Below, piece by piece: positions 27,360 to 44,605 of a DNA stretch of 64,000 nucleotides. Every line of letters starts with the position of its first letter. Within the stretch, counting starts at the first letter, position 1. The DNA is taken from the NCBI GenBank assembly GCA_036002655.1, contig DASYTD010000149.1, positions 1,452 to 65,451 on the forward strand. Direction: 5' to 3'. The position numbers and the translations under genes were made by a program. The stretch comes from Gemmatimonadales bacterium. Lineage in GTDB: Bacteria > Gemmatimonadota > Gemmatimonadetes > Gemmatimonadales > GWC2-71-9. The notes below the pieces were generated by a model, which was given only the letters and a program-made list of their open reading frames with translations, made no database searches and was not told where the DNA came from.

Positions 27360-28223
27360 CTATTCTCGCGGCGGCTCCTCGCCCTTAGTGACCAGCTCGA
27401 GCATCTCCTGACACTTCTTGCCCCAGGGATTGAACTTGTTCGCCTTGAAGCCGTCTTCCCAGGTGGCCTTGGCTTTCGCCTGATCGCCGGCGAACCAGTG
27501 CGCGCGTCCCAGCTCGTAGTAGGCCTCGATCAGATTGGGACCGAGCTTCAACGTCTTCTGGAAGAACGTCTCCGCGTCTTCGTACATCTCGCGCTGGAGA
27601 TAGACGAGCCCGAGATAGAAATGCGCGTACAGCGTCGCCTTTTTGTCGTTGTCGAGTCGAATCGCCTTCGACAGATGCTCGATGGCCTCGCCGAAGATCC
27701 GCTTCTTCAGGCAGATGTAGCCGACGTTGATCCGCGCGAGTGAATTCGCGGGCTCTTTCATCAAGACTTTTTGGAATGTGCCGAGCGCGTCGTCGTAGTC
27801 CTCGTGCAGCATCTGCGCCCACCCGAGCAGCGACTCCGCCTGCGTCTCGCCGGGCGAGAGCTGGAGCGCCTTGGTGAGCGCTTGGATCGCACCGGCATGA
27901 TCGCCGAGCGAGATGAGGCTCCACCCTTTTTCGATGAAGGTGGACGCGCCGATGTGGTCGGCATGCATGGCGGGCCGCTGTCCCGTGAATTCGGGAGCCG
28001 CGGCCTGCTTCGTGTCGGCGGCGAGCTGCTTGTAGCGGTCGACGAGCTGGCGGATGTCGTCCTTGAGTTGCGTCATCTCGCCCAGCATGCCGTCCACCTT
28101 CTTGAAATACGCGATGATCTCGCGCTTCGCGGCCTCGCGCTCGGCGTTCCCCGGCGCGCCCTCGAGCTGACGCGCGATGGTGTCGTATTCTCGGCGCAGC
28201 GCCGCGACCGGCGATTCCGTCAT
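27360..28223 (-). CDS. TPR-repeat protein (last gene of the che/mgl block)
   Basis: 287 aa. N-terminal coiled-coil-like segment, then TPR repeats (GDHAGAIQALTKALQLSP, YDDALGTFQKVLMKEP, FGEAIEHLSKAIRLD, YEDAETFFQKTLKLGP). The start overlaps the cheW stop by 4 nt. Confidence 0.8.
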   Translation of the reverse strand: MTESPVAALRREYDTIARQLEGAPGNAEREAAKREIIAYFKKVDGMLGEMTQLKDDIRQLVDRYKQLAADTKQAAAPEFTGQRPAMHADHIGASTFIEKGWSLISLGDHAGAIQALTKALQLSPGETQAESLLGWAQMLHEDYDDALGTFQKVLMKEPANSLARINVGYICLKKRIFGEAIEHLSKAIRLDNDKKATLYAHFYLGLVYLQREMYEDAETFFQKTLKLGPNLIEAYYELGRAHWFAGDQAKAKATWEDGFKANKFNPWGKKCQEMLELVTKGEEPPRE

Positions 28224-28699
28224 GTCACTCCTTGCAGGGCCATTTTTTCCTTTGAGTTCAGCAGTTTGTTGGTATTCAAAACGATGATGGTCCGGCCGTT
28301 CTGCACGATGAGACCGGCGATGTATTCGGCCGCCAATCCTTTCACGATACCGGGCGGCGGCGTCACGGCCTCGGCCGCCACCTGCAGCACCTCGGTCACG
28401 GCGTCCACGATCATGCCGATTTTCCCACCCTCGAACTCGAGGATGACGGTGCGCGTGTCCTCGCGCAGCGGTGCCGGCGTGCCGAGACGCTTCCGCAGGT
28501 CCACGAGTGGGACGACGCCGCCCTGATACTGGAGCACGCCCTCGAGAAAGTCGGGCGCCTTCGGCAGCGGCGCGGGCGCTTCATACCGCAGGATGCGCTC
28601 GACTTGAAAGATATTGAACGCGAAATCCTGGCCGCCCACCTTGAACGTGACCAGTTGGACGTCATCACCGGCCTCCCCCGCCCCCCCGGTGGTCGTCAT
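28220..28699 (-). CDS. cheW: chemotaxis coupling protein CheW (copy 1)
   Basis: Start taken at M27 of ORF 28220..28777; it overlaps the upstream stop (ATGA). QLVTFKVGGQDFAFNIFQVERILRYE...VLQYQGGVVPLVDLRKRLG is a typical CheW fold sequence. Confidence 0.88.
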   Translation of the reverse strand: MTTTGGAGEAGDDVQLVTFKVGGQDFAFNIFQVERILRYEAPAPLPKAPDFLEGVLQYQGGVVPLVDLRKRLGTPAPLREDTRTVILEFEGGKIGMIVDAVTEVLQVAAEAVTPPPGIVKGLAAEYIAGLIVQNGRTIIVLNTNKLLNSKEKMALQGVT

Positions 28700-29124
28700 G
28701 CGATACGATCTCCCAGCGCATCCAAGTCGAGAATCGGCACGAGCCCGCTTTCCTGCTCCGCGACGCCGACGGCCCACGGCAGCGTCTGCCCACGCGGCAC
28801 GGGAAGCGGCTGCTCGCGCACGACGGCATCTACGTCGTCTACTTCGAACGCAACTTGCCGGCCCCCCCCGCCCCCGGTGGCGCCGAGCTCGACGAGGACC
28901 ACCGTACGCACCGCACTTGGCGCAGCGGGCGCCTCCGTCCCTGTGAGAAACGCTCCTAAATGGATCAACGGCACCAGGCGTCCGCGCAGCGGCGTCAGGC
29001 CGCGAACTGCAGGGAGTTTACGTGGAACGCTCAGCACCTCAGTCGCGTCCCCGACTTCGAGCACGCGGCCGACCGGCAGACCGTACACCTTTCCCTGGGC
29101 GCGGACCAGCAGGTAGCCTTTCAT
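28696..29124 (-). CDS. cheW: CheW-like protein (copy 2, divergent)
   Basis: Start taken at M95 of ORF 28696..29406 ([24 protein letters not shown]...[15 protein letters not shown]); it overlaps the cheB stop (ATGA). Confidence 0.8.
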
Positions 29125-30248
29125 CGTAACGCCCTGCGACTCAGTTCGGCGGCCACGCGGTCGGCGATCTGGCCGAGCGGCAGCACGACATCCGCCCCGC
29201 CCGCCTGCACCGCCGCCAACGGCATTCCTGGAATGACCGACGTCTCGCGATCCTGCGCGACGCCGGTGCCACCCACGTCGTGGATCGCGCGCAAGCCCTC
29301 GGCGCCGTCGCGGCCCATCCCCGTGAGGACGACGCCTACGCCGCGCGCGCCGTAGACCTCGGCGATCGAGCGGAACAGCGGATCGGCCGCCGGGCGGACG
29401 CCCCAAATGGGCGGAGACTGATCGAGCGCGATGACGGGACCGTCGGGAGCGGAACGCACCCGCATATGATAATCGCCGGGGGCCACGTACGCCGTATCGG
29501 CGACGATCGGCACGCCGTCGTCGGCCTCGACGACGCGCAGCCGGGGGGGGCTCATCGAGTCGAGCCGCTCTGCAAGACTGCGGGTGAATTTCGGCGGCAT
29601 GTGTTGCACGATCAGCACCGCCGCGCCGCGCCCCGTGGGCAGGCGCGGCACGAGATCGGCGAGCGCGCGCGGCCCGCCGGTGGACGCCGCGACGCCGACC
29701 GCCAGCACGGCACGGCCGCGCGGCCGGAGCTCCGGCGGGTGCACGACGGGCGCCGGCGGCCGCGCCAGCACGTTGACGTGCGACAGGTCCGCCGCCAGCG
29801 CGCGACGCACCGCGGCGATGAGCTGCGGCGCAAGCGCTTCGAGCGCCGCGCGGGGATGACCGAAAACATCCGCCGGCGGTTTGGCGACGATCTCGACGGC
29901 GCCGAGCTCAAGGGCGCGGATCGCGGTAGCCGTGCCGGGGCCCACGTACGCGCTGACCACGACGATGGGCAGCGGCGACTCCGACATGATGTAGCCGATG
30001 GCGCCCAAGCCATCGAGCCGCGGCATCTCGAGATCGAGCGTGACGACGTCCGGTCGGTACTGATGCACTTTGCGGATGGCGTCCAGCCCGTCGCGAGCGG
30101 TCGCGACGACGCGGAACTCGCCGTTGTCCGCTTCTCCGCCGCCCAGGACGTCCACCAGCACGCGCCGCATGAGTGCGCTATCGTCGGCGACGACGACCGT
30201 CGGCCGCCCGGAAGACACGGGCTCAGATGACATGGGTATCGGCCCCAA
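29121..30248 (-). CDS. cheB: chemotaxis response regulator protein-glutamate methylesterase CheB
   Basis: REC domain ([21 protein letters not shown]) plus methylesterase catalytic motifs AASTGGP, VQHMP and GMGRDG. The start is 30248 or ATG 30233; both overlap the cheD 3' end. Confidence 0.92.
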
Positions 30249-30714
30249 CCGAGCGGATTTCCACGCGACCGTCCTTCACATGAAAGCGCACGCTGCGCCC
30301 GCGCTCACCCCCGACCGATTCCCGGACGATTGGGATTGCGGCCGCCCGAAGGGCGCTGCGACACGCCAGGACATTGCGCTCGCCCATTTGGATCGTGCCC
30401 GGCGTGACGAGCTGGCTGAACATGCTGGCACCGCCGGCCAGCTTCGCGACGAGCCGACGCGGGTCCGCGCCCAGGCCCTTGAGACGCTCGATCAGCAGGG
30501 GAACGGCGGTGTCGGGGAACTTGGCTCGGTTCGTGATATCGCGCGCCAGACTGGTGGACGGCAGGAGCACGTGCGCCATCGCGCCGGCCTTGGCTTCCGC
30601 ATCGTGCAGCATGAGCGCGACGCAGGACCCGAGTCCCAGCGTGACCAGTACGCCATCCCCGCGCTCGGCCGCCCAATCCGCCACCTTGACGATGACTTCC
30701 GTCACCGTCCTCAC
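30223..30714 (-). CDS. cheD: chemoreceptor glutamine deamidase CheD
   Basis: 163 aa. [13 protein letters not shown] (catalytic Cys), AHVLLP and GERNV motifs. The GTG start overlaps the cheR stop (GTGA). Confidence 0.9.
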
Positions 30715-31541
30715 GCCCTGACCCCCTCGCCGCGTTGCGGAGAGGGGGGACGGAGGGACCCATCGTCAGGCTTGACGTAGATCCGCTCGCGCGGATCCAC
30801 GAGCGTAAGGCGCTCGCGCGCGGGGCCGAACAACGTCTCGACCTTGCCGAGTAGCAGCACGCCGCCCGGTGCGAGCGCGTTCGCGAACACTTGAAACAGC
30901 CGCTCCTGCGCCTGGCGCTCGAAATAGATGACCACGTTGCGGCAGACGATGAGGTCGTAGGGAGGACGGGGCGGCGGCTCTCGCGTCAAATCGTGCGCGC
31001 GGATCTGCACCAGCTCGCGCACCAGGGGGGTCGGCTGCCCGTCCACGATGTAGTGGCGCTTGAGATTCGCCGGCATCTCGGTGAAGGCGCTCTCCGGATA
31101 CTTCGCCTGCCGCGTGCGCTCGAGGCTCAGTCGATCGATGTCCGTCGCGTCGATGAAACCCTGCGCGTGAGTTTCCGCGAGCAGCACCGCGATTGTGTAT
31201 GGCTCTTCACCGGAGGCGCAGCCGGCGGACCAGACGCGCAGGCTCGAGCGTGCCTGTGCCAACGCGTCGAGATAGGGCCGCAACGCGTTCCAGGTCTCGG
31301 CGTTGCGAAAGAACTTGGTGACGTTGATCGTGAGCGCGTCGAGCAGCTCCTGATACTCGCGCGCATCCCGATCGAGCAGCTTGCCGTAATCTTCGTAGGA
31401 ATGCACGCCGCGGGCCCGCATCCGGACCGCGATGCGGCGCTTCAGGCATTTGTCCTTGTACGATCCGCAGCTGATTCCCCGCTCGCGCGAAACCTTCTCC
31501 GTGAGCGCCCGAAAGCCGCGCTCGTCCTGCGCGGAGCTCAC
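30711..31541 (-). CDS. cheR: chemotaxis protein methyltransferase CheR
   Basis: Start taken at V64 of ORF 30711..31730. This GTG forms GTGA with the upstream stop and gives 276 aa. KCLKRRIAVRMR, TKFFRN, LRVWSAGCASGEEPYTIA (SAM site) and CRNVVIYF motifs. Confidence 0.9.
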   Translation of the reverse strand: MSSAQDERGFRALTEKVSRERGISCGSYKDKCLKRRIAVRMRARGVHSYEDYGKLLDRDAREYQELLDALTINVTKFFRNAETWNALRPYLDALAQARSSLRVWSAGCASGEEPYTIAVLLAETHAQGFIDATDIDRLSLERTRQAKYPESAFTEMPANLKRHYIVDGQPTPLVRELVQIRAHDLTREPPPRPPYDLIVCRNVVIYFERQAQERLFQVFANALAPGGVLLLGKVETLFGPARERLTLVDPRERIYVKPDDGSLRPPSPQRGEGVRA

Positions 31542-33154
31542 GACAGGGTGCTCAAGGTTTCCAAATTGGCTTTCACGAGTTCGTGCTTCGGGTTCAGCTC
31601 GAGGGCGCGGCGCCACAAGGCGCTCGCCTGGTCCCGGTCGTTTCGCTTGTAGGCGATGTTGCCGAGCTTGAAGTAGACGTCGTCGCCCAGCTCGGGAGAC
31701 AGCTCGATGGCGCGCTGATACAGCACCCACGCCTCGTCGTAGCGCGAGCCGCGGTAGGCGAGATCGCCGAGGTTCTTGGAGAGCTGCGGCAGGGACGGCT
31801 CGTCGTGCAGCGCGGCACGCGCGAGCTCTTCGGCTTTGAGCAGCTCGCCGGCGAGCTCGTGCAGCACCGCGAGATTGTTGCGGAGCACGCCATTTTGCGG
31901 ATGGGCTTCGACCGCCTGGGCGGCGACCTGCTCCGCAATTTCAAAGTCTCCCGCTGCAGCGGCGGCGAGCGCGCGCGCCCAGAACCAGATCGGCGGCACA
32001 CTCTCGGCAAAGAGCTCCTTGGCCCGGTCGAGCCGGCCCGCGGCGCTGACGTGGTCCCCCTGTTTCAGCGCGACCACGCCCCACCCCACGTAGACGCGCG
32101 GGTCGGTGCGCGCGCGCGTCGCCGCCTCGGCGTACGCCGCTTCCGCATCTTCCAGGCGGCCGAGCTGCTCGAATGCCAGTCCCAGGTTGTGCAACACCGC
32201 GGGCCGCGAGCCACCCTTTTCGGCGGCGAGCCGCAACGCTTCCATCGCTTCGCGCCAGCGCGCCTGCTTCAGCGCCACGAGCCCGATGAAGAAGTGCGCG
32301 TTGGCGTCGGTCGCGCGCAGCTCCGCCACGCGGCGGAATTCGCGCGCCGCTTCGTCCAGCATGCCGGTCTTGTAGAAGGCGATGCCCAAGTTGCGGTGCT
32401 CTTCCACGCGGGCATCCGTCATTTTCATGTCTTCGGCGCTGGCGGTGCGGCCGGCACGGTGGAGGAACCCGGCGGTGACGAGTCCGTACAGCGCCTTCCC
32501 CACCTCGAACTCACCCATCCCGGAGTCTTCGATGACCTGATTGACGTCACGCGAGCCATCGAGCAGCGGCAGCAGGCGCTCCTGCACTTCCGTCAGCTTC
32601 GCGTCGCTGATCGCAAGCCGGTCGCGGTCCACGAGGAAAATCAGATCGAAGGAGGGGATCTTCTTCTCGATGAGGCCCCACTCGTCCACGCGGCGCGCAC
32701 CCTCGAGCAGCAGCGACTCGGGATTGATGGACACGAGGAAGTCCTGCTGCTCGGGCCGGACGTCGGCCTCGAAGTTGAACGTCCCCTGCGTCCACGTGAA
32801 CAGGTAGTAAACCGACTCTTCGATCTGCATGCGCATGTAGCGCTCGAGCTCTTGCTGCGAGATCACGCTCTGGCTGACGAGGATCTCACCCAGCTTCTTG
32901 TCGCGCTCTTTGGCCTGGCGGTGAATCGCGGCGTCCAGCTGGTCCTGCGTGATCTTTTCGTGCTTGACGAGGATGTCGCCGAGGCGGTCGCGGCGATTCA
33001 CGATCGACGCGTACGCGATACGGCCTTTATCGAAGTAGATGTAGCCGAAGTTGGAACGGTCGGCGATCGACAGACAGCCGGTCTTCTGCCCCAACGCGAG
33101 CAGCTGCAGCACGTCGGGGAGCGAGGCTTCCTTGAGCGAGCCTTTGATCGCCAT
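31538..33154 (-). CDS. PATAN/DUF4388 domain - MshEN-like tandem motif - TPR protein (paralogue A)
   Basis: 538 aa. N-terminus [31 protein letters not shown]...GYIYFDKGRIAYA (DUF4388 signature). Then RLGDILVKHEKITQDQLDAAIHRQ-AKERDK-KLGEILVSQSVISQQELERYMRMQ. The C-terminal half is TPR repeats. Confidence 0.8.
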   Translation of the reverse strand: MAIKGSLKEASLPDVLQLLALGQKTGCLSIADRSNFGYIYFDKGRIAYASIVNRRDRLGDILVKHEKITQDQLDAAIHRQAKERDKKLGEILVSQSVISQQELERYMRMQIEESVYYLFTWTQGTFNFEADVRPEQQDFLVSINPESLLLEGARRVDEWGLIEKKIPSFDLIFLVDRDRLAISDAKLTEVQERLLPLLDGSRDVNQVIEDSGMGEFEVGKALYGLVTAGFLHRAGRTASAEDMKMTDARVEEHRNLGIAFYKTGMLDEAAREFRRVAELRATDANAHFFIGLVALKQARWREAMEALRLAAEKGGSRPAVLHNLGLAFEQLGRLEDAEAAYAEAATRARTDPRVYVGWGVVALKQGDHVSAAGRLDRAKELFAESVPPIWFWARALAAAAAGDFEIAEQVAAQAVEAHPQNGVLRNNLAVLHELAGELLKAEELARAALHDEPSLPQLSKNLGDLAYRGSRYDEAWVLYQRAIELSPELGDDVYFKLGNIAYKRNDRDQASALWRRALELNPKHELVKANLETLSTLS

Positions 33155-35091
33155 CAGCGAAGATCCTCGATGACACGGTCAGCAGCCGCGGGCCAATCCC
33201 ACACCATTTTCTCGCGGCTGCGCACACCTCCGGCGCTCGAGACCACGATCCCGCTGGTGCGCAAACCCGCCGTGCGACGCGGCGGCGGAGCGCCCTCGAG
33301 CACGTCGCGGGCGAGACCCGCCGTCACGGGTGCATCCTGCGCCGCGGCCGCCTCGATCACCCGCTGCACGAGCCCCGTCAAGCTGCGCACCGAGTCAACG
33401 GGGCGGTCCACGAGATAATCGAGCAGCGCCTCTTCCACCGGCACACGCTGGTTCTTGAGGAGCCGCGCCAGCGCGGCACGACGTAGCTCCTTGTCGGGGT
33501 CGCCGATTTCCGCGACGAGCCCACCCTCGAGCCGCGAGACGATGCGCTCCTCCAGGCCTTGGAGCGTGTTGGGATGGGCGGGCGCGGTGAAGACCAGCTG
33601 CCGGTCGGCGTCGAGGAACTGGTTGAAGAGATTGAAGAGCTCCTCCTGCGTCCGTTCCTTGCCGGCGAGCAGCTGGATGTCGTCGAGCAGCAGCGCCGTC
33701 GCGCGCCGGTAGCGCGCGCGCCACCAGTCCACCCGGTTGCCGTCAATGGCGGCGATCAGCTCGTCCACGAACTGCTGCGTGGACAGGCACGCCACGATGG
33801 CGTTTTTCTTCTTGGCCAGCTCGAGACCGATGGCGTTCAGGAGATGCGTTTTCCCGCGGCCACTCTTTCCGACGATCACGAGCGGGTTGTATTTCTTCCC
33901 GGGTTTGGCGATGGCGTCACGCGCGGCACTGAGCGCAACCTCGTTGGACGGACCCGCGATGTAGGTGCCGAGGGGGAACGCGCCGGACGGGGCCGGCGGT
34001 GGTGCCGCGCCGTCGCGTACTTTCGCGGCGGCCGCTTCCGCCTCCTCCATGTGGTCGGGATCGCGGAACACTTTCTCGCCCGCCGCCTGCGGATCGAGCA
34101 CCGCGACTTCCGCTTCGAGCGTCTTCAGCCGTTCGACGTCCTGCACGTACGCGGCGATCGCGTCGTCCACGGCCGCCGGCGTTTCCTGATCGAGCAGCTT
34201 CTCGAGCCGGCCGGTGCGGTACCCCTCGCCCTCCCACCGCAACACCGCCTCAGCCACACGCGCGCGCCACGCCTCGACGGCTTTGCCGACGGTGACCGTG
34301 ACGTCACTCAGGAACTGCGAGAACTCATCGCCCGCAGGCTTGGCCGCCGGCTCCGCCTTGGCCTCCCCGCTCCCTGCTACTCCAAGCACCTGCCGCGCGG
34401 CCTCCGCGTTGATGGGCGTGTCATTGACCGCCTGGAACGCGATCAGCCGGTTGAGCGCGCCCATCAGCTCGCGCACGTTCGGATACTCGACCTTCGCAAC
34501 CGTCTCGAGCACGCCGGGCTGGAACGACGTCCCGCGCTCTTCCGCCTTGCGGCGCAGAATCGCGACACGGGTTTCGTAATCGGGAATGCCCATATCGACA
34601 ACCAACCCGCCCGAAAAGCGCGAGATCAGCCGCTCATCGAGGTCCGCGATTTCCGCCGGGGGCCGGTCGCTCGCGAGCACGATCTGATGGCCGGCCTGCT
34701 GTAGTGCTTCGGTGAGGCGGAGCAGCTCGGTCTGCATCTCTTTGCGATTGGTCAGGAATTGCACGTCGTCCACCAGCAGCACATCCACATTCTGGAAGCG
34801 CCGCCGGAATGCGTCGCCCTGTCCGGCCGCGATCGCGGCATGGAAGGCTTCGACGTACTCGTCCAGCGTCAGGTATTCGATGTTGATCTGCGGGGCGAGC
34901 GCCTTGGCGGCGTGCCCGATGGCCATCAGCAGGTGGGTCTTCCCCAGCCCAGAGCCACTATAAATGAAGAGGGGGTTGTAGGCCGAGCCCGGATTCTCGG
35001 CGACCGTGCGTCCCGCCGTGACGGCCAGCCGGTTCGCGGCACCCACCACGAACGTCTCGAACATGAAGCGGGGATTGAGCGTGCTGGTCAT
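33154..35091 (-). CDS. tandem DnaA-domain-III (AAA+) protein lacking DnaA domains I and IV
   Basis: 645 aa. Module 1: [81 protein letters not shown]. Module 2: [56 protein letters not shown]. The ATG overlaps the mglA stop (ATGA). The stop overlaps the start of the next gene by 1 nt. Confidence 0.85.
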
Positions 35092-35690: not shown

Positions 35691-35692
35691 GG

Positions 35693-36513: not shown

Positions 36514-37358
36514 GTTTGTTTCTCCAACCACCGGCGCGCCATGGCGGTCGCGCGTTGCGCGAGAATCGCGAGGCGACCCAGCGGCATGCCGCGCTCCCGC
36601 ACGACGAGCAGCAAGGCCTCAGGCGTCGGATGGCCAAGGTGCACGTTGCCGTGCTGCCCTTCGGCCGAGAGCCCGTTCCACGCGCCGAGCCCGAGCAGCT
36701 TCGCGGTCCGCGCCGCCTCCTGCGACACACCGGCGAGATACGCGGCGACGGCGTCCGTGACATCAGTACCAGACTTATCCCTCAAGGCACCACCGAGGAC
36801 ACGACCAGCGCCGTCGATGAGCAGCAGGCCTTCGTTTGCACCCTCGAGTCCTGCGAAAACGCGAGCTTCGTCGAGCACACCACCCGAAACGGCGGCGGTA
36901 GAAGAGGCGGCGGTCGCTGACGGCTCCGGGGCGGAACTCGGTGTGGGCGACGGCGGTCCCACGCCGCTGCGCATCATCGCGATCGCCTGATCGATGGTGG
37001 GATCATCCGGCTCGACCTTGCGCGCGGCCTCGAGATGGGACTCGGCTTGCGCCAGGTCGCCGACTTTGAAATAGAGGAAGGCGAGTCCCTTCAACGCACC
37101 GGTGTGGTTCGGCGCGATCCGCACCGCCATGTCCCACTCGTCGAAGGCGCGCTCGTAATCATGCTTGTCGGTGAGCACGCGCGCGTACAGGTCGTGAGCG
37201 TCCGCCAGGTGGGGATGGCGCTCGAGGCCGTTCATCGCGACGCGCAGCGCCGCCTCGAGCTGGCCCTTGCGCCGCAAGGCTTCGCCCAGCCGCAGGAACA
37301 CGAGGCTCTGCGGATCCTGTGCGAGCTGGGCGGAGAGTGCGCGAATCTCGTCAGCCAT
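36510..37358 (-). CDS. TPR - Roadblock/LC7 fusion protein
   Basis: 282 aa. The N-terminal 130 aa or so are TPR-like (LGEALRRKGQLEAALRVAMNGLERHP, YERAFDEWDMAVRIAP, LAQAESHLEAARKVEP). A Ser/Pro/Ala linker follows. The C-terminal segment GLLLIDGAGRVLGGAL...ALLLVVRERGMPLGRLAILAQRA is Roadblock-like. Confidence 0.75.
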   Translation of the reverse strand: MADEIRALSAQLAQDPQSLVFLRLGEALRRKGQLEAALRVAMNGLERHPHLADAHDLYARVLTDKHDYERAFDEWDMAVRIAPNHTGALKGLAFLYFKVGDLAQAESHLEAARKVEPDDPTIDQAIAMMRSGVGPPSPTPSSAPEPSATAASSTAAVSGGVLDEARVFAGLEGANEGLLLIDGAGRVLGGALRDKSGTDVTDAVAAYLAGVSQEAARTAKLLGLGAWNGLSAEGQHGNVHLGHPTPEALLLVVRERGMPLGRLAILAQRATAMARRWLEKQT

Positions 37359-38487
37359 GGGCGAACACTCGGGCTGCTTGCCGGGCGCGCTCGACTTCGG
37401 ACCGCTGCGCTTCCTCGTCGGGGCCGCGGGCGAGCCGCTCCCATTGATCCCAGCTTGCGACCGCTTCGGCGAACCGGCCCATGGACACCAGCGCGAATCC
37501 CAGCTGGCGATGCGCGGCCGCGAGCTGCGGGTCGAGCCGCAGCGCGCGGCGCAGCTCCTCGGCAGCCGCGGAGCCGTGTCCCTGAGCCAGGTGAATCCGG
37601 CCGAGCAGCATGTGGATCGTCGGATCGTGCGGCTGCATGCCGCCCGCCTGCTCCGCCGCCGCGCGCGCCGCGTCGAGATCCTTCGCGAGCAACGCCCGCT
37701 CCGCCTTCGCGACGAGCTCCGGCAGATCCGACACGGCGCTGGGCCGCCCGCGCTTTGCCGTGCCGGGGTCCACCAGCACGATCACACCCGCGCTCTCGAG
37801 ACCGAACAGCGTCTTGGCGACGTCGAAGTCCGAGCGGCCCAGCTCCGTCGCCAGTCCCCGGACGGAACGCTCGCCATCAATGAGCGCCAGCACCTCCCAC
37901 TCGGGTGGCAGCAGATCGAGCTCGCCGCCGCCCCCTTCGGGTGGCGGCGCGAGCGACGGCACGACGCCGACATGGGGAATGCGGTTCTCGATGCGCGACC
38001 ATTCGTCGATGCGGCGCGCTCCTTCCATCAGCAACGCTTCGACCGGAATCCGCACCGTGACCTCGGTCGGCACTTTCGTGTCGGGCTGCTCGTTGAACGA
38101 GAAGTAGCCTTCGTTCCAGCTCATCACTTCGAAGACGACTTCCTCGATCTGGAACCGCACTTGCCGCTCGACCTCGCGTTGGGTGATCACGCCGAGCGCG
38201 ACCAGGATTTCGCCGAGCCGCCGCTTGTCGCCCTGGCGCTGCTGCATGTCGCGGGCGCGCTCGAGGTCGGCCTCGGTGATCTTGCCCGTGCGCAGCAGCA
38301 GCGCGCCCAGCGGGTGCGGGTTGCTGCGGATTTCCGCGGAGACCACCACCCCGTTGTCGAAATAGATCGTCCCCTCGTTGTGCCGCAGCTCCGAGGTGAC
38401 CTTCAACGCGCCCGTCTTCCGGCTCAGATCGAGGAGCTGGAAGACGTCGTGGATGCCGAGCTCGCGGAGCGGTCCTTCGATCGCCAT
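37351..38487 (-). CDS. PATAN/DUF4388 domain - MshEN-like tandem motif - TPR protein (paralogue B)
   Basis: 378 aa. MAIEGPLRELGIHDVFQLLDLSRKTGALKV...GTIYFDNGVVVSA (DUF4388). Then PLGALLLRTGKITEADLERARDMQ and RLGEILVALGVITQREVERQVRFQ. C-terminal TPR repeats. Confidence 0.8.
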   Translation of the reverse strand: MAIEGPLRELGIHDVFQLLDLSRKTGALKVTSELRHNEGTIYFDNGVVVSAEIRSNPHPLGALLLRTGKITEADLERARDMQQRQGDKRRLGEILVALGVITQREVERQVRFQIEEVVFEVMSWNEGYFSFNEQPDTKVPTEVTVRIPVEALLMEGARRIDEWSRIENRIPHVGVVPSLAPPPEGGGGELDLLPPEWEVLALIDGERSVRGLATELGRSDFDVAKTLFGLESAGVIVLVDPGTAKRGRPSAVSDLPELVAKAERALLAKDLDAARAAAEQAGGMQPHDPTIHMLLGRIHLAQGHGSAAAEELRRALRLDPQLAAAHRQLGFALVSMGRFAEAVASWDQWERLARGPDEEAQRSEVERARQAARVFAHG

Positions 38488-38491
38488 GTCG

Positions 38492-41191
38492 CTACGCCGC
38501 GTCCGAGGTGGAGAAGATGTGCTGCAAATCCACGGCGGTCCGCGCGTGCATGCGCGACCGCTGCGCGAACGGTCCGCCCGGATCGATGCGGGTCACCCGC
38601 TCCCACGCGTCCACCGCTTCGCCATAGCGCTGCAGCCGCGCCAGCGTCGCGCCGAGGTAGAATAACGCGCCGGTGTGCTCGGGATCGAACTTGAGCGCGC
38701 GCCGGAACGCCTCGAGCGCTTCGACGTTGCGCTTGTCGTCGAGCAGCGCTCGGCCGAGCAACAGCAACGCATCCATGTCGTACGGATCCTGCTCCAGCAT
38801 TTCGGCGAGCCGCACCACGGCGGCGCGAACGCTGCCCGAGCGCCGCAACAAATCGGCGAGCGCGAGCGCCGCCTCATGGAACGTCGGCAACGCCTCGAGC
38901 GCCTCTTCGTACGCGCGCTGCGCCTGCGGCCAATCTTCGTCCTGCTCGTGCAGCCGGCCCAGCTCCAGCCACACCTGCACGAATCCCCGATCGAGATCGA
39001 GGGCGGAGCGGTACGCGGCGCTCGCGCCCTGCCGATCGCCGACCTTGAGCGCGATGTCGCCCTGCAGCTTGTGCAGATCGGCACGCGCCGGCGCACGGGT
39101 CTGTGCCTGCCGCAGCGCCGTGAGCGCGCCGGCCGCGTCACCCGTCGCGGCGCGTGCCTTTGCGGCGGCCACCAGCACCTCGACGTCTTCCGGCGCGTTG
39201 GTGGCGAGCGCTTCGGCGAGCGGCAGCGCTTCGGCTCCCCGATGCACGGCCAGGAGGCTCTTCACCTCGCCCAGCGCCGCGGCGGAGTTCGCGGCGTCGA
39301 GCGTGCGGGCTTCGCGGTAGCGCTCGAGCGCTTCGCCGTGCAGGCCGCGGCGCGCGTAGATGTCGCCGAGCAGCGTGGCCGCCTGGCCGCGGTCGGCACC
39401 GCGCTGGACGGCCCGCATCGCTTCGGCGACCGCGAGGTCCATCATCCCCTTGCTCACGTAGTCGCGTGCCAAGGCAAGCGGGTCGTCCACTTTCTTCGCG
39501 AGCCCGGCAGGTGCGGGCTGCAGCGCCGCCGCGGGCGGCTCGAGCTCCTGGAAAATGTTGTCGAGCAGCCGTTGGTCGAACGCGAACTCGCCTCCGAGGT
39601 TCTCGGCCGTGACGTCGGCCGAGATCTCGGGCACGATGCCGATGGCCACGGTCTCGTATTGCAGGTCGATCGCCAGGGCGAATTTCTGCGAGACGTAGTA
39701 GGGATCCAGCTCGAGGGCGCGTTTGGTGGCCCGCAGCGCGCCGTCGTAATCGCCGAGATTGGACAGCGTGAAGCTCAGGTTGTAGTGCGCGCCGGCATTC
39801 TGCGGATCGGCCTCGACCGCTCGCACGAACGCGTTGCGGGCATCGGGAAACCGTTTCAGCTCGACCAGCACCAGCCCCACGCCGTTCCACGCCGGCGCCG
39901 ACGCCGGCTGTTCCGCCAGCACCTGGCGATAGGCTTCGAGTGCGAGCTGGAAGCGGCGCAGATGCGTGAGCAGCAACGCGAGATTGAGCCGGGCGCCCAG
40001 GAATCCGGGCGAGAGCTGCAGCGCTTTCCGGAACCCCTCGATGGCGTCCTCGGTGTCGCTCTGATGCGCGAGCACCACGCCCACGTTATTCCAGGCGAGC
40101 GCGTAGCGCGGATCGACTTCGGTCGCCTGACGATAGGACGTGAGCGCTTCGGCCGTGCGCCCCGCCTGATGCAACACCACGCCGCGCTCGTTCCACAGCT
40201 TGGGCGAATCAGGCAGGTCATGGATCAACGACTCGTACAGCTCGAGCGCGTCGGGGAAGTCGCGCTTGAGGAGATAGACCTCCGCCATCGCCTGGCGCAC
40301 GAGCCGCCGGTCCTCCCCGCGCTCGATCGCGAGGCGATACTCGCGCAGCGCCTCCGTGTAGTAGCCCTTCTGCCGGAAGGCGAGGCCGAGGTTGTAGTGG
40401 GCGAGCTCGCTGCCCTCGGCGACTTCCGGCGCGGGTTGCTCGCGCAGCCGGTGCTCGGCCGACTGCCGCTCGGCGCGGTAGCGCTCCAGCGACAGATTCG
40501 TCTGCGCGCGCGCGAGCGGCGGGTTGAGCTGAATCGCCCGTTTCGATGCCGCGCGCGCATCCTGATGCCGCCCCATGTCGCCGAGCACGAACGCCATCAG
40601 GTAATGCGCGTTCGCGTTGTCGGGATTGAGCATCACCGCGCGCTCCAGGGCGGTCAGCGCCGGCTCGTTCAAGCCGCGATTGTAGTAGACCTCCCCCAGA
40701 TAGAAGTGCACGACGGAGGAATCGGGCTCCTCCTCGGCGGCCCGCAGGAACCACTCGGTCGCGACTTCCAACCGGCCGCGGGATTTCTCGGCGAGTCCGA
40801 GCTGGATGATCGCGGCCACGTCCTTGGGCTTGTGGGCGAGCAGCTCCTCGAACTCGGCGACCGCCTCCTCGAAGGCGCCGAGGATCGCGTACGTGCGGCC
40901 CAGCTCCCAGCGCGCGTCGCGCTCGTCGGGCGCCTGGCGCAGGCGCTCCTGCAGCTCGCCGACGCGGCGGTCGTAATAGCCGGTGTTGTGGTAGGAAATC
41001 TCGAGGTTGCGCTGCGCGACCTGCATCCGCGGGTCGAGCTCCAGCGCGCGCGTGAACTGCTCGATGGCCTCGGGCACGAGGCCTTTTTGATAATAGAGAA
41101 CGCCGAGGTTGTTGTGCGCCCCCGCGTCCGACGGATCGATCCGGCGGGCAAAGGACCTCAACACCGTGAGGTCGCGTTCTGATACGATCAA
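38492..41191 (-). CDS. large TPR-repeat protein (about 899 aa)
   Basis: ORF 38492..41302 is TPR repeats essentially end to end (more than 20 repeats by eye). The annotated ORF start overlaps cheC by 115 nt. I prefer TTG 41191-41189, which forms TTGA with the cheC stop. GTG 41164 is an alternative start. Confidence 0.8.
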   Translation of the reverse strand: MIVSERDLTVLRSFARRIDPSDAGAHNNLGVLYYQKGLVPEAIEQFTRALELDPRMQVAQRNLEISYHNTGYYDRRVGELQERLRQAPDERDARWELGRTYAILGAFEEAVAEFEELLAHKPKDVAAIIQLGLAEKSRGRLEVATEWFLRAAEEEPDSSVVHFYLGEVYYNRGLNEPALTALERAVMLNPDNANAHYLMAFVLGDMGRHQDARAASKRAIQLNPPLARAQTNLSLERYRAERQSAEHRLREQPAPEVAEGSELAHYNLGLAFRQKGYYTEALREYRLAIERGEDRRLVRQAMAEVYLLKRDFPDALELYESLIHDLPDSPKLWNERGVVLHQAGRTAEALTSYRQATEVDPRYALAWNNVGVVLAHQSDTEDAIEGFRKALQLSPGFLGARLNLALLLTHLRRFQLALEAYRQVLAEQPASAPAWNGVGLVLVELKRFPDARNAFVRAVEADPQNAGAHYNLSFTLSNLGDYDGALRATKRALELDPYYVSQKFALAIDLQYETVAIGIVPEISADVTAENLGGEFAFDQRLLDNIFQELEPPAAALQPAPAGLAKKVDDPLALARDYVSKGMMDLAVAEAMRAVQRGADRGQAATLLGDIYARRGLHGEALERYREARTLDAANSAAALGEVKSLLAVHRGAEALPLAEALATNAPEDVEVLVAAAKARAATGDAAGALTALRQAQTRAPARADLHKLQGDIALKVGDRQGASAAYRSALDLDRGFVQVWLELGRLHEQDEDWPQAQRAYEEALEALPTFHEAALALADLLRRSGSVRAAVVRLAEMLEQDPYDMDALLLLGRALLDDKRNVEALEAFRRALKFDPEHTGALFYLGATLARLQRYGEAVDAWERVTRIDPGGPFAQRSRMHARTAVDLQHIFSTSDAA

Positions 41192-41805
41192 GTCAATCGA
41201 ATGGCGTCGAAGATCGCTTTGAGAGACGCCAGGTCGGGCAGGAGCAGGAAATGCCCGCGCAGCCCGTCTTGGGCATCGATGTTGAACTCCGTCTCGACGC
41301 AAAACACGAAGTCCCGGTCGTGCCCAAAGTTCAGATAGGTCGTTGTGAGCACGGCGGCGGAGAGATCCACTACCAGGCTAGGGACCGAGGGGAGCAGCAA
41401 CATCCCCATGAATTCGGACAGCGCGTTCATGTAAGCGCCCGAGAGGATGTTGCCGGCTTCCTTGAGGCAGGACTGCTCGATCGTCTCGAACACCTTGGTC
41501 GTGCCCAGGGGGCGCTTGAGCAGCATGTCGCACAGCTGCCGCCCGACGGGCTCGGGGAACAGCAGCAACGTGCGTCCCGTGAGGTCGCCGAGCATGTGCA
41601 TGAGGACGGCGGCGACGACCTCCTGTGGGTCGCCGATCAGTCCCGGCACCTCCTCGAGGCGCGCGATGTTGATCTCGGGTACCGAGATCATGATGCGCCG
41701 GTGCGTGAGCTGCGACAGCGCCGTGGCGGCGTGCCCCGCTCCGATGTTGGCGACCTCTTTCAGCGCGTCGAGCTGCAGCGCCTTCAGATCACGGACGTCT
41801 TCCAT
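41188..41805 (-). CDS. cheC: CheY-P phosphatase CheC
   Basis: Start taken at M12 (MEDVRDLKALQLDALKEVANIGAGHAATALSQL) with GGAGGAG upstream. A second pseudo-repeat follows (EQSCLKEAGNILSGAYMNALSEF). Both halves carry the E-x2-N active-site pattern. Confidence 0.85.
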   Translation of the reverse strand: MEDVRDLKALQLDALKEVANIGAGHAATALSQLTHRRIMISVPEINIARLEEVPGLIGDPQEVVAAVLMHMLGDLTGRTLLLFPEPVGRQLCDMLLKRPLGTTKVFETIEQSCLKEAGNILSGAYMNALSEFMGMLLLPSVPSLVVDLSAAVLTTTYLNFGHDRDFVFCVETEFNIDAQDGLRGHFLLLPDLASLKAIFDAIRLT

Positions 41806-41818
41806 CGTCGCTCCTCCC

Positions 41819-43717
41819 CTACACCAGGCCGGCGGCATCGAGAATCAGCGCCGGCACCCCATCGCCCATGATCGTGGCGCCGCTGAAGACCGGCAGCGTG
41901 CCTTCCGGTGCATCGAATCCCTTCACGACGATCTCCTGCTGACTGAGCATCCCGTCGACGACGATCCCGGCGCGCCGCTCGCCCAATTCCACAACAATCA
42001 CTGGGCGCCGCGGCGGCGGCGCGGGAGCACCGCCATTCGTTCCCAGGAGCTTCCGCAGATCCACGAGCGGCACCACCCGATCGCGCAGCACAATGGCGTC
42101 GCGGCCTTCCATCGTCGTGAGGGGCACCGTCCCGAACTCGACCGTCTCCGCGACGTAGGTCAGCGGCAGCGCGTAGCGCTCCTGGCCGACGGCGGCGATC
42201 AGCGCGCGCACGATCGCGAGCGTCACCGGCAGCCGCAGGATGAAGGCGGTGCCCTTCCCCGGCTCGGTGCGGATCTCGATCGATCCGCCGAGCGCGCGGA
42301 TGCGCGTCATGGCGACATCGATCCCGACTCCTCGGCCCGAGACGTTGGTCACCGCATCCGCCGTGGAGAATCCCGGCCGCGCGAGCACGCGCAGCAGCTG
42401 ATCGTCCGACAGTGCCTCGACGTGCGGGCCCACGATTCCTTCGCGCTTCGCCTGCTCCAGAATGCGCGTGCGATCGATGCCGCGGCCGTCGTCGCTGATG
42501 CTGATCGCGACGCTGGAGCGCTCGCGCACGGCCGAGAGAACGATCTCTCCCTCGGCATTCTTCTTGGCGCGTTTGCGCTCGGCGGGGGACTCGATGCCGT
42601 GGTCCACGGCGTTGCGCAGCAGGTGCACGAGCGGATCGCCCAACTCGTCGAGGATTTCGCGATCGAGCTCGATCTCCTTCCCTTCCACGCGAAACGCCAC
42701 CTGCTTGCCGACCTGCCGGGCAACGTCGCGCACCAGCCGGGGAAAGCGATCGAACACTTGCCAGACCGGCGTCATGCGCGCCTGGATGATTTCGTTCTGC
42801 AGATCAGCGGAGAGCCGCGAGATCTGAATCGCGACTTCGTCGATCTGCGGATCGTGTCCGACCCAGCGTGCCGCCAGCTCGTTCAAGCGGCCGCGCTCCG
42901 TGACGAGCTCGCCGATGAGATCCATGAGCGTATCGAGCCGGCGCAGATCCACCCGGATGTGCCGGCCGCGCCCCCCACCCGCGACGCTCTCGGCGGGCGT
43001 GACCTGGCTCTCGTCGCCCCCCCCCGCGACGGTGGCGCGTTCGACGTCTCCCACCGAGCGGATGGCGGCCTCGATGTCGGCCGGCGCAGCCGCGGTGTCG
43101 AGCTCGAAGGCGAAACGGCCATCGAAGTCATCGGACTCGAATGCGGCGGCCGCGGGCTGGAGGCGATGAACAGCGCCGAGCGTCTGCGCCTTGCGCACGA
43201 TCAGCATCGCGCGGCCGCCCTTGAGCGGGGCTTCGGGACGGATTACGACTTGGACGACGCGTCCGGAGCCGGACGGGGCGGCGAGTGAGGCGGCGGCGGG
43301 GGGCGGCGGTCGCTTGGGCACCGCCTGGGCTTTCGGTGCGTAATGCGCCGCTGCGCGATCGATGTCCGCGACAACGGTCAGATCCGCATCACGCTCCCGG
43401 CCGGCAACGGCGAGCGCAACCGCCTTCTCGAGTGCGTCAGTTGCGCGGAACAAGAGCTGCAGCGTCTCGTCAGTCGGATGTCGCGCGCCGCGCCGCAAGT
43501 GATCGAGCAGGTTTTCCATGCGGTGGGCGAGGTCCGCGACGCGGCCGTAACCCATCGTCGCCGCCATCCCCTTGATCGTATGCACCGCGCGGAAGATGCC
43601 GCCCACCGGCTCCGGCGAGGCGGGATGCCGCTCCCACTCGAGCAACAGCTGATTGCAGGCGCTCAAGTGCTCGCGGCTCTCGGCCAGGAACAGCTCGGCG
43701 TACTGCGACAGGTCCAT
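41819..43717 (-). CDS. cheA: chemotaxis histidine kinase CheA
   Basis: Start taken at M43 (MDLSQYAELFLAESREHL), 2 nt after the cheY stop. Hpt motif FRAVHTIKG, dimerisation RHIRVDLRRLDTLMDLIGELV, N-box HLLRNAVDHGIE, G-boxes DDGRGID and GRGVGID, and a C-terminal CheW-like domain. No C-terminal REC domain. Confidence 0.95.
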   Translation of the reverse strand: MDLSQYAELFLAESREHLSACNQLLLEWERHPASPEPVGGIFRAVHTIKGMAATMGYGRVADLAHRMENLLDHLRRGARHPTDETLQLLFRATDALEKAVALAVAGRERDADLTVVADIDRAAAHYAPKAQAVPKRPPPPAAASLAAPSGSGRVVQVVIRPEAPLKGGRAMLIVRKAQTLGAVHRLQPAAAAFESDDFDGRFAFELDTAAAPADIEAAIRSVGDVERATVAGGGDESQVTPAESVAGGGRGRHIRVDLRRLDTLMDLIGELVTERGRLNELAARWVGHDPQIDEVAIQISRLSADLQNEIIQARMTPVWQVFDRFPRLVRDVARQVGKQVAFRVEGKEIELDREILDELGDPLVHLLRNAVDHGIESPAERKRAKKNAEGEIVLSAVRERSSVAISISDDGRGIDRTRILEQAKREGIVGPHVEALSDDQLLRVLARPGFSTADAVTNVSGRGVGIDVAMTRIRALGGSIEIRTEPGKGTAFILRLPVTLAIVRALIAAVGQERYALPLTYVAETVEFGTVPLTTMEGRDAIVLRDRVVPLVDLRKLLGTNGGAPAPPPRRPVIVVELGERRAGIVVDGMLSQQEIVVKGFDAPEGTLPVFSGATIMGDGVPALILDAAGLV

Positions 43718-43719
43718 CG

Positions 43720-44082
43720 CTATCCCAGGACGCGCTGGACGGCTTCGAGGACGCGGGAGGGCTGGAAGGGTTTGACGACGAAGTCCTTGGCGCCCGCCTG
43801 AATGGCTTCGACGACCAGCGCCTGCTGGCCCATGGCGCTGCACATCAGGATCTTGGCGTCGGGATCGTGCTTGACGATTTCGCGGACGGCATCGATGCCG
43901 CCCATGTCGGGCATCACGATGTCCATCGTGACGAGGTCGGGCTTGAGCTGCCGGTACTTTTCGACCGCCTGGGTGCCGGTTTCCGCCTCGCCGACGACCT
44001 CGAATCCGGCCTGGGCCAGGATGTCGGTGATCATCGTGCGCATGAAGATGGCATCGTCACAGACGAGAACCGTGTGGCTCAC
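43720..44082 (-). CDS. cheY: chemotaxis response regulator CheY
   Basis: 120 aa single REC domain. VLVCDD, LVTMDIVMP (phospho-Asp), CSAMG and FVVKPF are all present. Confidence 0.95.
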   Translation of the reverse strand: MSHTVLVCDDAIFMRTMITDILAQAGFEVVGEAETGTQAVEKYRQLKPDLVTMDIVMPDMGGIDAVREIVKHDPDAKILMCSAMGQQALVVEAIQAGAKDFVVKPFQPSRVLEAVQRVLG

Positions 44083-44092
44083 TGCTCGCTCC

Positions 44093-44605
44093 TTAAGTGG
44101 TCAGAATCGGGCCCAACAGTGCTGCCACGTCCAGGACGATGAACACTGCACCGTTGCGTCGCCCGACGGCTCGCACCAGCGTCGGGTCGACGCCGGGAAG
44201 CGTCTTCCGATCTTCCAGCGTCGTGTCCCCCGCCGCCAGCATGTCCATCACCTCGTCAACCGTAAAGCCAATCATCTTCCGATCGTTCCCCTCTTTGGCG
44301 ACTTCGAAGATGATCGTCGAACCCAATGCGGGCTCGGAGATTGATGCCGGGACGGAGGGGCCTGCGGTGGGACTGGCCGGGGAGGGATCCTGCCCCAGCG
44401 CACGCCACCCTTCCACGACCGTCACCAGTGTGCCGCGGACATTCACGAGCCCCGCGACGACCGGGGGCGCGCCCGGGATACGCGTCGTTGGGAGGCGCGG
44501 CAGGATCTCCCGCACCTGATCCACCTCGGCCGCGCACGCCAGGGCTCCCACGCGGAACACCAGCAATCGGCCGGGGGGGGCGGGGACGAGGCTTCCTTCA
44601 TTCAT
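44093..44605 (-). CDS. cheW: CheW-like protein (copy 3, with low-complexity insertion)
   Basis: Start taken at M29 (MNEGSLVPAPPGRLLVFRVGALACAAEVDQVREIL...VVAGLVNVRGTLVTVV). It overlaps the rluD 3' end by 8 nt. A Pro/Ser-rich insert DPSPASPTAGPSVPAS is present. Confidence 0.8.
   Translation of the reverse strand: MNEGSLVPAPPGRLLVFRVGALACAAEVDQVREILPRLPTTRIPGAPPVVAGLVNVRGTLVTVVEGWRALGQDPSPASPTAGPSVPASISEPALGSTIIFEVAKEGNDRKMIGFTVDEVMDMLAAGDTTLEDRKTLPGVDPTLVRAVGRRNGAVFIVLDVAALLGPILTT

Follow-up and report, generated by a model that had tools for sequence, protein, structure and literature searches.

Crosstalk between a chemosensory pathway and a Ras-like GTPase switch has been worked out in Myxococcus only, where the components, the Frz pathway and the MglA, MglB, MglC and RomR proteins of Myxococcus xanthus, are scattered and were found one by one; the Frz genes and those of the MglA module are at separate loci. 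Here we analyze an array of 18 genes in a 64,000-nucleotide stretch of DNA from a Gemmatimonadales bacterium (assembly GCA_036002655.1, contig DASYTD010000149.1; hereafter, the window), in which a set of chemotaxis (che) genes is split into two halves by a block encoding MglA, an MglB-like protein, further Roadblock proteins, PATAN and TPR proteins, and an ATPase that consists of two DnaA-like AAA+ modules (Table 1). As in M. xanthus, a Che-type pathway would control a switch, formed by a Ras-like GTPase and a Roadblock GTPase-activating protein (GAP), that sets the active pole. Further points of likeness are additional Roadblock paralogues, comparable to MglC, a TPR effector comparable to SgmX, and an MglA that is 57% identical to its M. 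xanthus counterpart and has the same catalytic residues. Unlike the Myxococcus genes, however, those of the window lie in one array, which includes neither a CheA-CheY fusion nor a gene for a cytoplasmic receptor, and the block is without a recognizable RomR/RomX-type gene but adds CheC, CheD, two PATAN-TPR proteins, and the tandem DnaA-like ATPase.

The other described systems that resemble the array are the cyanobacterial Tax/Pix systems, which belong to the type IV pilus (Tfp) class and include PatA-type PATAN-REC proteins, and the Pil-Chp system of Pseudomonas. These share with the window a chemosensory cluster with PATAN proteins, where PATAN is the output that binds PilB and PilC; in Synechocystis, binding of this domain to PilB1 and PilC was demonstrated by experiment. 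In the window, by contrast, PATAN is fused to TPR rather than to a receiver (REC) domain, CheY is encoded separately, a single Hpt domain and no REC are found in CheA, and the cluster has no gene for a methyl-accepting chemotaxis protein (MCP) and no pil genes; conversely, Tax/Pix and Pil-Chp have neither MglA/MglB nor the ATPase. The first-pass annotation of the window had counted the PATAN proteins among those with no assigned role in either pathway, which is too strong a statement for a domain that binds PilB/PilC in Synechocystis.

That annotation had also proposed that the array is an undescribed system. We found no paper describing the cluster, that is, none on the embedding in che genes, on the tandem ATPase family, or on the pilBTC-linked block discussed below. 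The adjacency of PATAN to MglA and MglB is, however, known: the linkage to MglB was noted in 2006, and the adjacency to MglA was listed for GAU_1409 in 2014. As a whole, the feature is real, conserved, and apparently undescribed. Our preferred reading, to which we assign a probability of about 0.45, is that of a CheC/CheD-containing, F1-like core coupled to a built-in MglA polarity switch, the output of which would most likely be a polar type IV pilus machine.

Gene order and junctions

The 18 genes at positions 27360-44605 all run in one direction, on the minus strand, in the order cheW-cheY-cheA-cheC, TPR, PATAN-TPR, TPR-Roadblock, Roadblock, mglB, mglA, tandem DnaA-like ATPase, PATAN-TPR, cheR-cheD-cheB-cheW-cheW-TPR, and each assignment is backed by Pfam (in the case of MglA, by a weak Arf match only). 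The first-pass annotation had given the same order, and had held that the MglB-MglA block is embedded between two che halves rather than lying beside them and that no gap exceeds 13 nucleotides (nt). The order and the embedding are borne out, the latter by conservation as well, and the limit on gap length holds with the most parsimonious start codons, which are inferred rather than mapped. With these starts, the gaps are 10, 2, 13 (with cheC beginning at the ATG at 41805), 4, and 2 nt, and the remaining junctions are overlaps of 1-11 nt, including seven of 4 nt, or eight if the Roadblock gene starts at the ATG at 36513. In an orthologous contig (L001), whose ATPase is 88% identical to that of the window, independent gene calls yielded junctions of no more than 10 nt, with the exception of 46 nt between cheB and cheW, and the junctions at the block borders are no longer than 4 nt also in a distant relative (L004).

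The junction lengths are the only basis for the single transcription and translation unit that the first-pass annotation proposed. The overlaps run on upstream of the array: an rluD-like gene (44598-45608) shares 8 nt at its stop codon with the start of the first cheW, and is itself overlapped, over 4 nt, by lspA, so that the transcription unit may begin upstream of 44605, and the che array may be co-transcribed with housekeeping genes.

Conservation of the array in Gemmatimonadota

The taxon names on proteins identical or nearly so to those of the window likewise point to Gemmatimonadales. With an MglA alignment as the query, we scanned a single genome for each species, took the best 80 loci, and scored their open reading frames (ORFs) with the proteins of the window. 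The composite cluster was detected in 47 of the 80 loci (L007-L053), with MglA 61-97% identical to that of the window; these loci are labeled Gemmatimonadales, Gemmatimonadaceae, Gemmatimonas, Longimicrobium, and Longimicrobiales, along with a few probably mislabeled bins. The gene for CheA is found upstream in all 22 loci with a flank of at least 9 kb, that for CheB downstream in 24 of the 25 with a flank of at least 7 kb, and the tandem ATPase in 46 of the 47. The other 33 loci (L054-L086), in which MglA is 53-63% identical, have cheA upstream in 0 of 14 cases, cheB downstream in 0 of 17, and no tandem ATPase; they include the plain mglB-mglA pair that Gemmatimonadota have as a second one, as well as those of Myxococcota, Desulfuromonadales, Planctomycetota, and Thermoanaerobaculia. 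In metagenomic contigs, an ATPase only 33-48% identical to that of the window comes with the same gene order and the same chromosomal flanks, and, in a neighbor-joining (NJ) tree of 81 MglA sequences, computed without support values, the che-linked MglAs form one clade. Because order and flanks are kept at such low identity of the ATPase and there is a single che-linked MglA clade, we regard the arrangement as ancient and vertically inherited in Gemmatimonadota and, so far, specific to this phylum.

The occurrence in 47 of 80 MglA loci from species-representative genomes disposes of the possibility, raised in the first-pass annotation as one that would undo its proposal, that the arrangement exists in one genome only. 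The linkage of the two modules indeed recurs across Gemmatimonadota, but it is, so far, limited to that phylum, the 33 other MglA loci being without che genes.

The same observations bear on a reading of the array as a mosaic without functional coupling, in which unrelated operons were compacted in a gene-dense region that has ileS-lspA-rluD on one side and the dcw cell-division cluster on the other. Such compaction would fit a window that is co-directional nearly throughout, with overlaps extending into rluD and lspA, as well as the separate occurrence of sub-blocks in other lineages. However, the succession of che half, block, and che half is kept in all of the 47 loci that have a long enough contig, with ATPase identity as low as 33-35%, whereas a random juxtaposition would neither persist nor split the che set at an identical position in every locus. 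This conservation of order excludes chance juxtaposition, and the mosaic explanation appears very improbable.

The gene content of the array varies to some extent. Variants lacking cheD and two cheW genes exist; one locus (L045) has no tandem ATPase, and another (L053) has no TPR-Roadblock, Roadblock, and MglB genes. The latter variant agrees with the neighborhood of GAU_1409 in Gemmatimonas aurantiaca, which was given as "PATAN>MglA>-PATAN>" in the 2014 survey and thus places a gene of this species within a variant of the cluster; the host phylum is abundant in soil and has cultured motile members. The second Gemmatimonadota MglA paralogue, ~53-63% identical and encoded in a plain mglB-mglA pair without che genes (L055-L057, L059, L061, L064, L070, L074, L078, L079, L081, L083), agrees with the split between GAU_1409 and the second pair, GAU_1115 ("MglB>MglA>"), in the same survey. 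Two bin labels look wrong, namely, "Acidimicrobiia" for L022, which has a full Gemmatimonadota-type cluster with an MglA 80% identical to that of the window, and "Bifidobacteriales" for L072.

Table 1. Genes of the array and its downstream neighbor, in the order of transcription (lengths in amino acids, aa; scores in bits unless given as E values)
Gene or protein	Coordinates	Strand	Length (aa)	Matches and remarks
cheW-1	44093..44605	-	170	Pfam CheW 75.8
cheY, single-domain response regulator	43720..44082	-	120	Pfam Response_reg 109
cheA	41819..43717	-	632	Pfam five domains: Hpt-P2-dimerisation-HATPase-CheW
cheC, CheY-P phosphatase family	41188..41805	-	205	From ATG 41805 (alternative start 41838); Pfam CheC 78.4, two repeats
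Large TPR protein	38492..41191	-	899	Pfam TPR families
PATAN-TPR protein 1	37351..38487	-	378	Pfam DUF4388 (PF14332) 113
TPR + C-terminal Roadblock-like protein	36510..37358	-	282	Pfam TPR and weak Robl_LC7 16.6 (below the cut-off of 23)
Roadblock/LC7 protein	36166..36513	-	115	From ATG 36513 (ATGA overlap); first possible start GTG 36531; Pfam Robl_LC7 38.9
mglB-like Roadblock protein, presumed GAP	35693..36169	-	158	Pfam Robl_LC7 27.1 (cut-off 23)
mglA, Ras-like GTPase	35088..35690	-	200	E = 4e-73 to M. xanthus MglA 5ymx; che-linked paralogue clade
Tandem DnaA-domain-III-like AAA+ ATPase ("AAA2")	33154..35091	-	645	Pfam Bac_DnaA x2, 340
PATAN-TPR protein 2	31538..33154	-	538	Pfam DUF4388 (PF14332) 137
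cheR methyltransferase	30711..31541	-	276	Pfam CheR 155 and CheR_N
cheD	30223..30714	-	163	Pfam CheD 100.8
cheB methylesterase with receiver domain	29121..30233	-	370	Pfam CheB_methylest 204 and Response_reg
cheW-2	28696..29124	-	142	Pfam CheW 60.9
cheW-3	28220..28699	-	159	Pfam CheW 122
Terminal TPR protein	27360..28223	-	287	Pfam TPR; same position in most long loci
Peptidase_MA_2 protein	26521..27318	-	265	Pfam 38.2; 41 nt downstream, outside the 18-gene range

MglA and the Roadblock proteins

The GTPase matches M. xanthus MglA (5ymx/6izw) with E = 4e-73 and 57% identity, and T. thermophilus MglA (3t12) with E = 3e-69. The hallmarks of MglA, described in part in PMC3000849, are a threonine in place of the usual aspartate of the DxxGQ motif (TVPGQ), a catalytic glutamine, and an intrinsic arginine finger. 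The window protein contains the motif LYTVPGQ (T78, Q82) and R53 within DRTLFFDF; all three residues are invariant in the MglA alignment, as are the positions of the P-loop (GxxxxGK[ST]) G19-G21, G24, K25, T26, and T27. By these sequence features, the GTPase is a true MglA of the group 1 family.

The gene for the 158-aa Roadblock protein ends 2 nt ahead of mglA. The eight best matches of this protein among solved structures are all MglB, with M. xanthus MglB at the top (E = 9e-9), and its score with the curated MglB equivalog, the Thermus-type model NF052242 of NCBIfam, was 32 bits against a cut-off of 200. It is best viewed as a divergent MglB homologue that presumably functions as a GAP. The TPR-Roadblock protein matches the MglB model weakly, over residues 200-278, and has an orthologue in the pil-linked block of Zixibacteria and Ignavibacteria. 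For the 115-aa Roadblock protein, the best solved match is a generic Robl_LC7 protein (7f8m, E = 6e-6), and we therefore make no claim of its equivalence to MglC.

The tandem DnaA-like ATPase

In public databases, this ATPase is annotated as "chromosomal replication initiator protein DnaA", which is almost certainly wrong. Each half of the protein corresponds to domain III of DnaA and shows the full set of ATPase motifs of the initiator-clade AAA+ proteins DnaA and Hda. Unlike these, it is a tandem duplication with a conserved helical linker and C-terminal motif, and is encoded in signaling and pilus contexts rather than at an origin. Neither DnaA_N (PF11638) nor the DNA-binding DnaA domain IV (PF08299) was matched in the 645-aa sequence, whereas a true DnaA retrieved in the same search (P0269) carries both. 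A role as a replication initiator was considered and rejected, given the missing DnaA_N/DnaA_C domains and the context of signaling or pilus genes.

The AlphaFold2 model consists of two AAA+ modules, with a mean predicted local distance difference test (pLDDT) score of 86 and a predicted template modeling score (pTM) of 0.47, such that the relative placement of the modules is uncertain. The best fold match in the PDB is domain III of B. subtilis DnaA, with a template modeling (TM) score of 0.95 over the target and 45% identity; in the alignment with this domain, GLGKTHL, LLvDDvQF, RLxSRF..GL, and NvREL.GAL are present, and both halves keep Walker A/B, the box VII arginine, and sensor II. The family includes more than 60 full-length representatives with 33-57% identity. 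Its invariant residues are G48, G50, K51, D108, and R175; D109 and R207 are conserved in at least 90% of the sequences, and K414 and D470 mark the second half. Also kept in the family are the helical linker and the C-terminal motif EK..(W).WP...RLIEE, the version of which in the window protein ends with ...DRVIED.

The second module retains, at residues ~475-485, a "KERTQEE" stretch resembling the "KE(R/Q)xQEEFF" segment of DnaA, which has a part in contacts with single-stranded DNA. This stretch raises the possibility of nucleic acid binding by the ATPase.

On these grounds, one might view the ATPase as a nucleoid-binding or filament-forming positioning factor, whose DnaA-type ATP-dependent oligomerization, possibly on DNA, would anchor or segregate a cytoplasmic signaling complex, in the manner of nucleoid-associated Frz arrays or of the ParA-like PpfA and unlike a signal relay. 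This would concern the role of the ATPase only and would fit either of the outputs considered below. The near-complete DnaA domain III in each half, with its motifs kept, and the KERTQEE stretch would agree with such a function, as would the nucleoid association of Frz arrays (PMC6952110). However, the ATPase has neither DnaA domain IV nor any other DNA-binding domain, and it occurs without che genes, its constant partners being TPR and PATAN proteins and its fusions being with MshEN and REC; furthermore, the arrangement of the modules in the model is uncertain. We consider this role quite unlikely.

Loci with the ATPase but without che genes include L089, L091, L088, and L092. Some relatives are giant proteins with a fused N-terminal MshEN domain, whose genes neighbor those for a PilB-like ATPase and a prepilin peptidase. 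In L088 (2681-13179), MshEN and two DnaA-like modules are joined in the giant proteins, which are 921 and 1876 aa long, and the locus also encodes a stand-alone MshEN protein and a single DnaA-like ATPase in addition to the PilB-like ATPase and prepilin peptidase; it looks like an unusual pilus-like locus. Another relative has a C-terminal receiver domain and belongs to a phosphorelay locus (L092, 5692-12939), which includes a PAS-HisKA-REC hybrid kinase, two Hpt proteins, two receivers, and a REC-HD-GYP protein. A widespread family that is annotated as "DnaA" is thus flagged as, almost certainly, one of signaling ATPases.

TPR and PATAN proteins

The 899-aa TPR protein accompanies the tandem ATPase even without che or mgl genes: its orthologues adjoin the ATPase in L005/L090 (302 bits) and in L091 (370 bits). 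The partner constantly found downstream of the ATPase is PATAN-TPR protein 2, with orthologues encoded after the ATPase in L087 and L089. In these two loci, which have no che genes, the Peptidase_MA_2 gene directly follows that of PATAN-TPR protein 2, and it follows the array in L001/L003; this conserved neighbor is possibly part of the system.

Both PATAN-TPR proteins score above the cut-off of 38 bits with NF053729, a model of an MshE-related motif that binds cyclic di-GMP (c-di-GMP), reaching 43.3 bits for protein 1 and 53.8 bits for protein 2. The tandem MshEN-type motif, RLGxx(L/V/I)(L/V/I)xxG(L/V/I)(L/V/I)xxxxLxxxLxxQ, is located in the helical insertion of PATAN, at residues 59-112 of protein 1 (~38152-38313) and residues 57-110 of protein 2 (~32825-32986; both on the minus strand). 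One of the two motif arginines is changed in each of the proteins, to P in protein 1 and to K in protein 2. The motif is kept in the orthologues from Gemmatimonadota, Zixibacteria, and Ignavibacteria, and is degraded in the Cloacimonetes-type proteins. The PATAN proteins thus carry putative c-di-GMP sites, which suggest c-di-GMP as a second input into the system.

Related blocks in other lineages and a probable link to type IV pili

In four genomes of Zixibacteria and Ignavibacteria (L054, L058, L060, L085), genes for PATAN, TPR-Roadblock, Roadblock, MglA, and MglB proteins, with mglA before mglB, are directly followed by pilB (MshEN+T2SSE), pilT, pilC, and the gene for a PilS-like kinase. All five of these kinds of protein are also encoded in the block of the window, with detectable homology throughout and little change in order; the differences are the absence of che genes and the tandem ATPase, two extra small genes, an extended MglA, and the direct linkage to the pilus motor. 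PATAN, MglA, and the pilus motor are tied together by synteny in three candidate phyla. The pil-linked MglA ORFs are 362-442 aa long (L085, 10001-11329; L054, 10001-11089; L058, 9355-10452) and include a C-terminal extension of ~170-250 aa with no Pfam match; the two small genes, of ~125 and ~315 aa, are conserved inside the block and likewise have no Pfam match.

A different combination is found in a lineage labeled Cloacimonetes (L005/L090), where the taxonomy is one submitter label, "Candidatus Cloacimonetes bacterium 4572_55". The genes here run cheW-cheY-cheA-(AAA_22 ATPase)-(CheW-domain protein)-cheC-TPR-PATAN-tandem ATPase, in which the TPR protein is the orthologue of the 899-aa protein, and MglA, MglB, cheR, and cheB were not found in the array. 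The inserts between cheA and cheC (L005, 4035-5923; L090, 3743-5493) encode the AAA_22 ATPase (272 aa, ExeA/MshM-like by eye) and a protein of 310-344 aa in which CheW is the C-terminal domain.

The chromosomal slot that the array occupies in the window, after ileS and rluD and before Peptidase_MA, contains in one genome only an MglB-like protein, the tandem ATPase, and PATAN-TPR protein 2, and in one other genome only the large TPR protein and the ATPase. Because three sub-blocks are found separately elsewhere, we take the most constant core to be the ATPase plus the TPR and PATAN proteins that accompany it; with this core, the che genes associate independently of MglA. The link to type IV pili, the c-di-GMP motifs of the PATAN proteins, and the combination of che, TPR, PATAN, and ATPase without MglA/MglB were all absent from the first-pass annotation.

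Within Gemmatimonadota, there are only two hints of pili, namely, a PilT/PilB-family ATPase gene just upstream of a plain mglB-mglA pair (L070) and the PilY1 homologues that one paper places in this phylum.

The chemotaxis core and the proposed output of the array

With respect to the classes of Wuichet and Zhulin, the gene content of the array is that of F1, with the core CheA, CheW, CheY, CheB, and CheR and the auxiliary CheC and CheD all matched by Pfam; the MCP and flagellar genes that neighbor F1 systems were not found, no such domains being present in the array, its flanks, or the Pfam-annotated orthologous loci. By gene content, the che core looks F1-like. The top NCBIfam matches, which served as a proxy for class-specific hidden Markov models, were CheA_Halo, CheY_Halo (131 bits), and CheC_Thtogales (161 bits), all under the cut-off. 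Assignment of the CheA class from similarity to solved structures was dropped, the E. coli (2.6e-90) and T. maritima (6e-87) proteins scoring alike and not discriminating the class. As regards the Tfp class (Pil-Chp/Tax), CheA is a single-Hpt protein without REC, the PATAN proteins are without REC, and there are no pil genes in the window; the system may work like the Tfp class, of which it is not a member.

From the observed gene content, order, conservation, and homology, we infer a mechanism in which receptors encoded elsewhere would signal to CheA via the three CheW proteins, with adaptation by CheR, CheB, and CheD, and with CheC dephosphorylating phosphorylated CheY (CheY-P). CheY-P would act on proteins of the block, and not only on the flagellar switch; its target could be the MglB/Roadblock complex, as for FrzX-P in Myxococcus, or the tandem ATPase, whose relatives have a fused receiver domain. 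This input would shift MglA between the GTP and GDP states or between poles, with MglB and the two Roadblock proteins acting as GAP or regulator. MglA-GTP, the large TPR protein, and both PATAN-TPR proteins would next act on the pilus motor (PilB/PilC), with c-di-GMP as an additional input through the MshEN-type motifs of PATAN, and the tandem ATPase could serve as an ATP-dependent assembly or switch scaffold. The pilus is proposed as the output because the homologous block adjoins pilBTC, the MshEN-ATPase fusions adjoin a PilB-like ATPase and a prepilin peptidase, and PATAN binds PilB1/PilC; signaling from CheY into the block is suggested by the ATPase-receiver fusion and by the linkage of che genes to the ATPase independently of mgl.

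Several points weigh against this reading. No pilus, flagellar, or receptor genes are present within the 64-kb window, so that the output is deduced entirely from other phyla. A CheC/CheD-type core usually controls flagella, and the CheA of the array, with one Hpt and no receiver domain, is without the multi-Hpt/REC architecture of pilus-type CheAs. Co-transcription is unproven: in a promoter and terminator scan, which is blind to non-sigma-70 promoters, the counts equaled the shuffle expectation. In the NJ tree of MglA, the che-linked clade is not placed beside the pil-linked clade; the tree leaves the sister relation open, and the common origin of the blocks therefore rests on shared gene order and not on the tree. 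MglB and the Roadblock proteins were dropped in L053 and GAU_1409, and the ATPase in L045, so that not every part is essential. Finally, cultured Gemmatimonas species have a polar flagellum.

The last of these points leads to the closest alternative, namely, that the che genes are responsible for ordinary flagellar chemotaxis, FliM being the target of CheY-P, and that the block, co-expressed with them, organizes the pole by placing chemoreceptor arrays, the flagellum, and/or pili and is not downstream of CheY. The clustering would then reflect co-regulation of "motility and polarity" genes, with no signaling wire between them. The CheC/CheD-type core, with best NCBIfam matches to haloarchaeal CheA/CheY and Thermotogales CheC, the canonical architecture of CheA with its P2 domain, and the single polar flagellum on Gemmatimonas cells are all compatible with this scenario. 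In addition, positioning ATPases, such as PpfA/ParC-type proteins, are known from che operons. In a Gemmatimonas transcriptome paper, one CheA and a chemoreceptor respond together to calcium, and fli and chemotaxis genes are slightly up. However, the linkage of che, TPR, PATAN, and ATPase in a second lineage speaks against it, as does the receiver domain fused to the ATPase elsewhere, which suggests input of a phospho-signal into the block; moreover, the relatives of the block adjoin pilBTC rather than flagellar or array genes, and no flagellar genes are found within the window. We consider the flagellar scenario somewhat unlikely, although the two readings remain close.

A further reading, bolder than the coupling to pili and in our estimate unlikely, is that the array represents a new class of chemosensory output, beyond the flagellar, Tfp, and "alternative cellular function" classes. 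CheY-P and c-di-GMP would converge on the DnaA-derived tandem AAA+ ATPase, which would control the nucleotide state that a dedicated MglA paralogue adopts or the pole to which it is addressed, for example, as a missing exchange factor or an ATP-gated polar landmark for MglA. If this is the case, the ATPase family is an unrecognized class of signal-transducing switches, with MshEN, REC, PATAN, and TPR partners, in several phyla.

The conserved array amounts to a candidate parts list that consists of a Che core, CheY, three Roadblock proteins, MglA, two PATAN proteins with c-di-GMP motifs, TPR scaffolds, and a new ATPase. It gives direct, falsifiable predictions of binding partners and suggests that sensing is linked, directly and in a way open to testing, to which cell pole is chosen, probably for type IV pili.

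Flanking genes

Upstream of the array is a housekeeping run, ftsH-folP-cdaA-...-yggS-divIVA-PNP-ileS-lspA-rluD, and downstream, the genes for the Peptidase_MA protein and a TPR protein are followed by the dcw cluster, from rsmH through ftsZ. Within the latter, at 9940-11217 of the window, the composition-based gene picker took a plus-strand ORF with no Pfam match, in the place between ftsQ and ftsZ where a minus-strand ftsA is expected. On the upstream side, in the stretch with continuing overlaps (44598-46522), a gene for a DksA/TraR-type zinc-finger protein abuts ileS.

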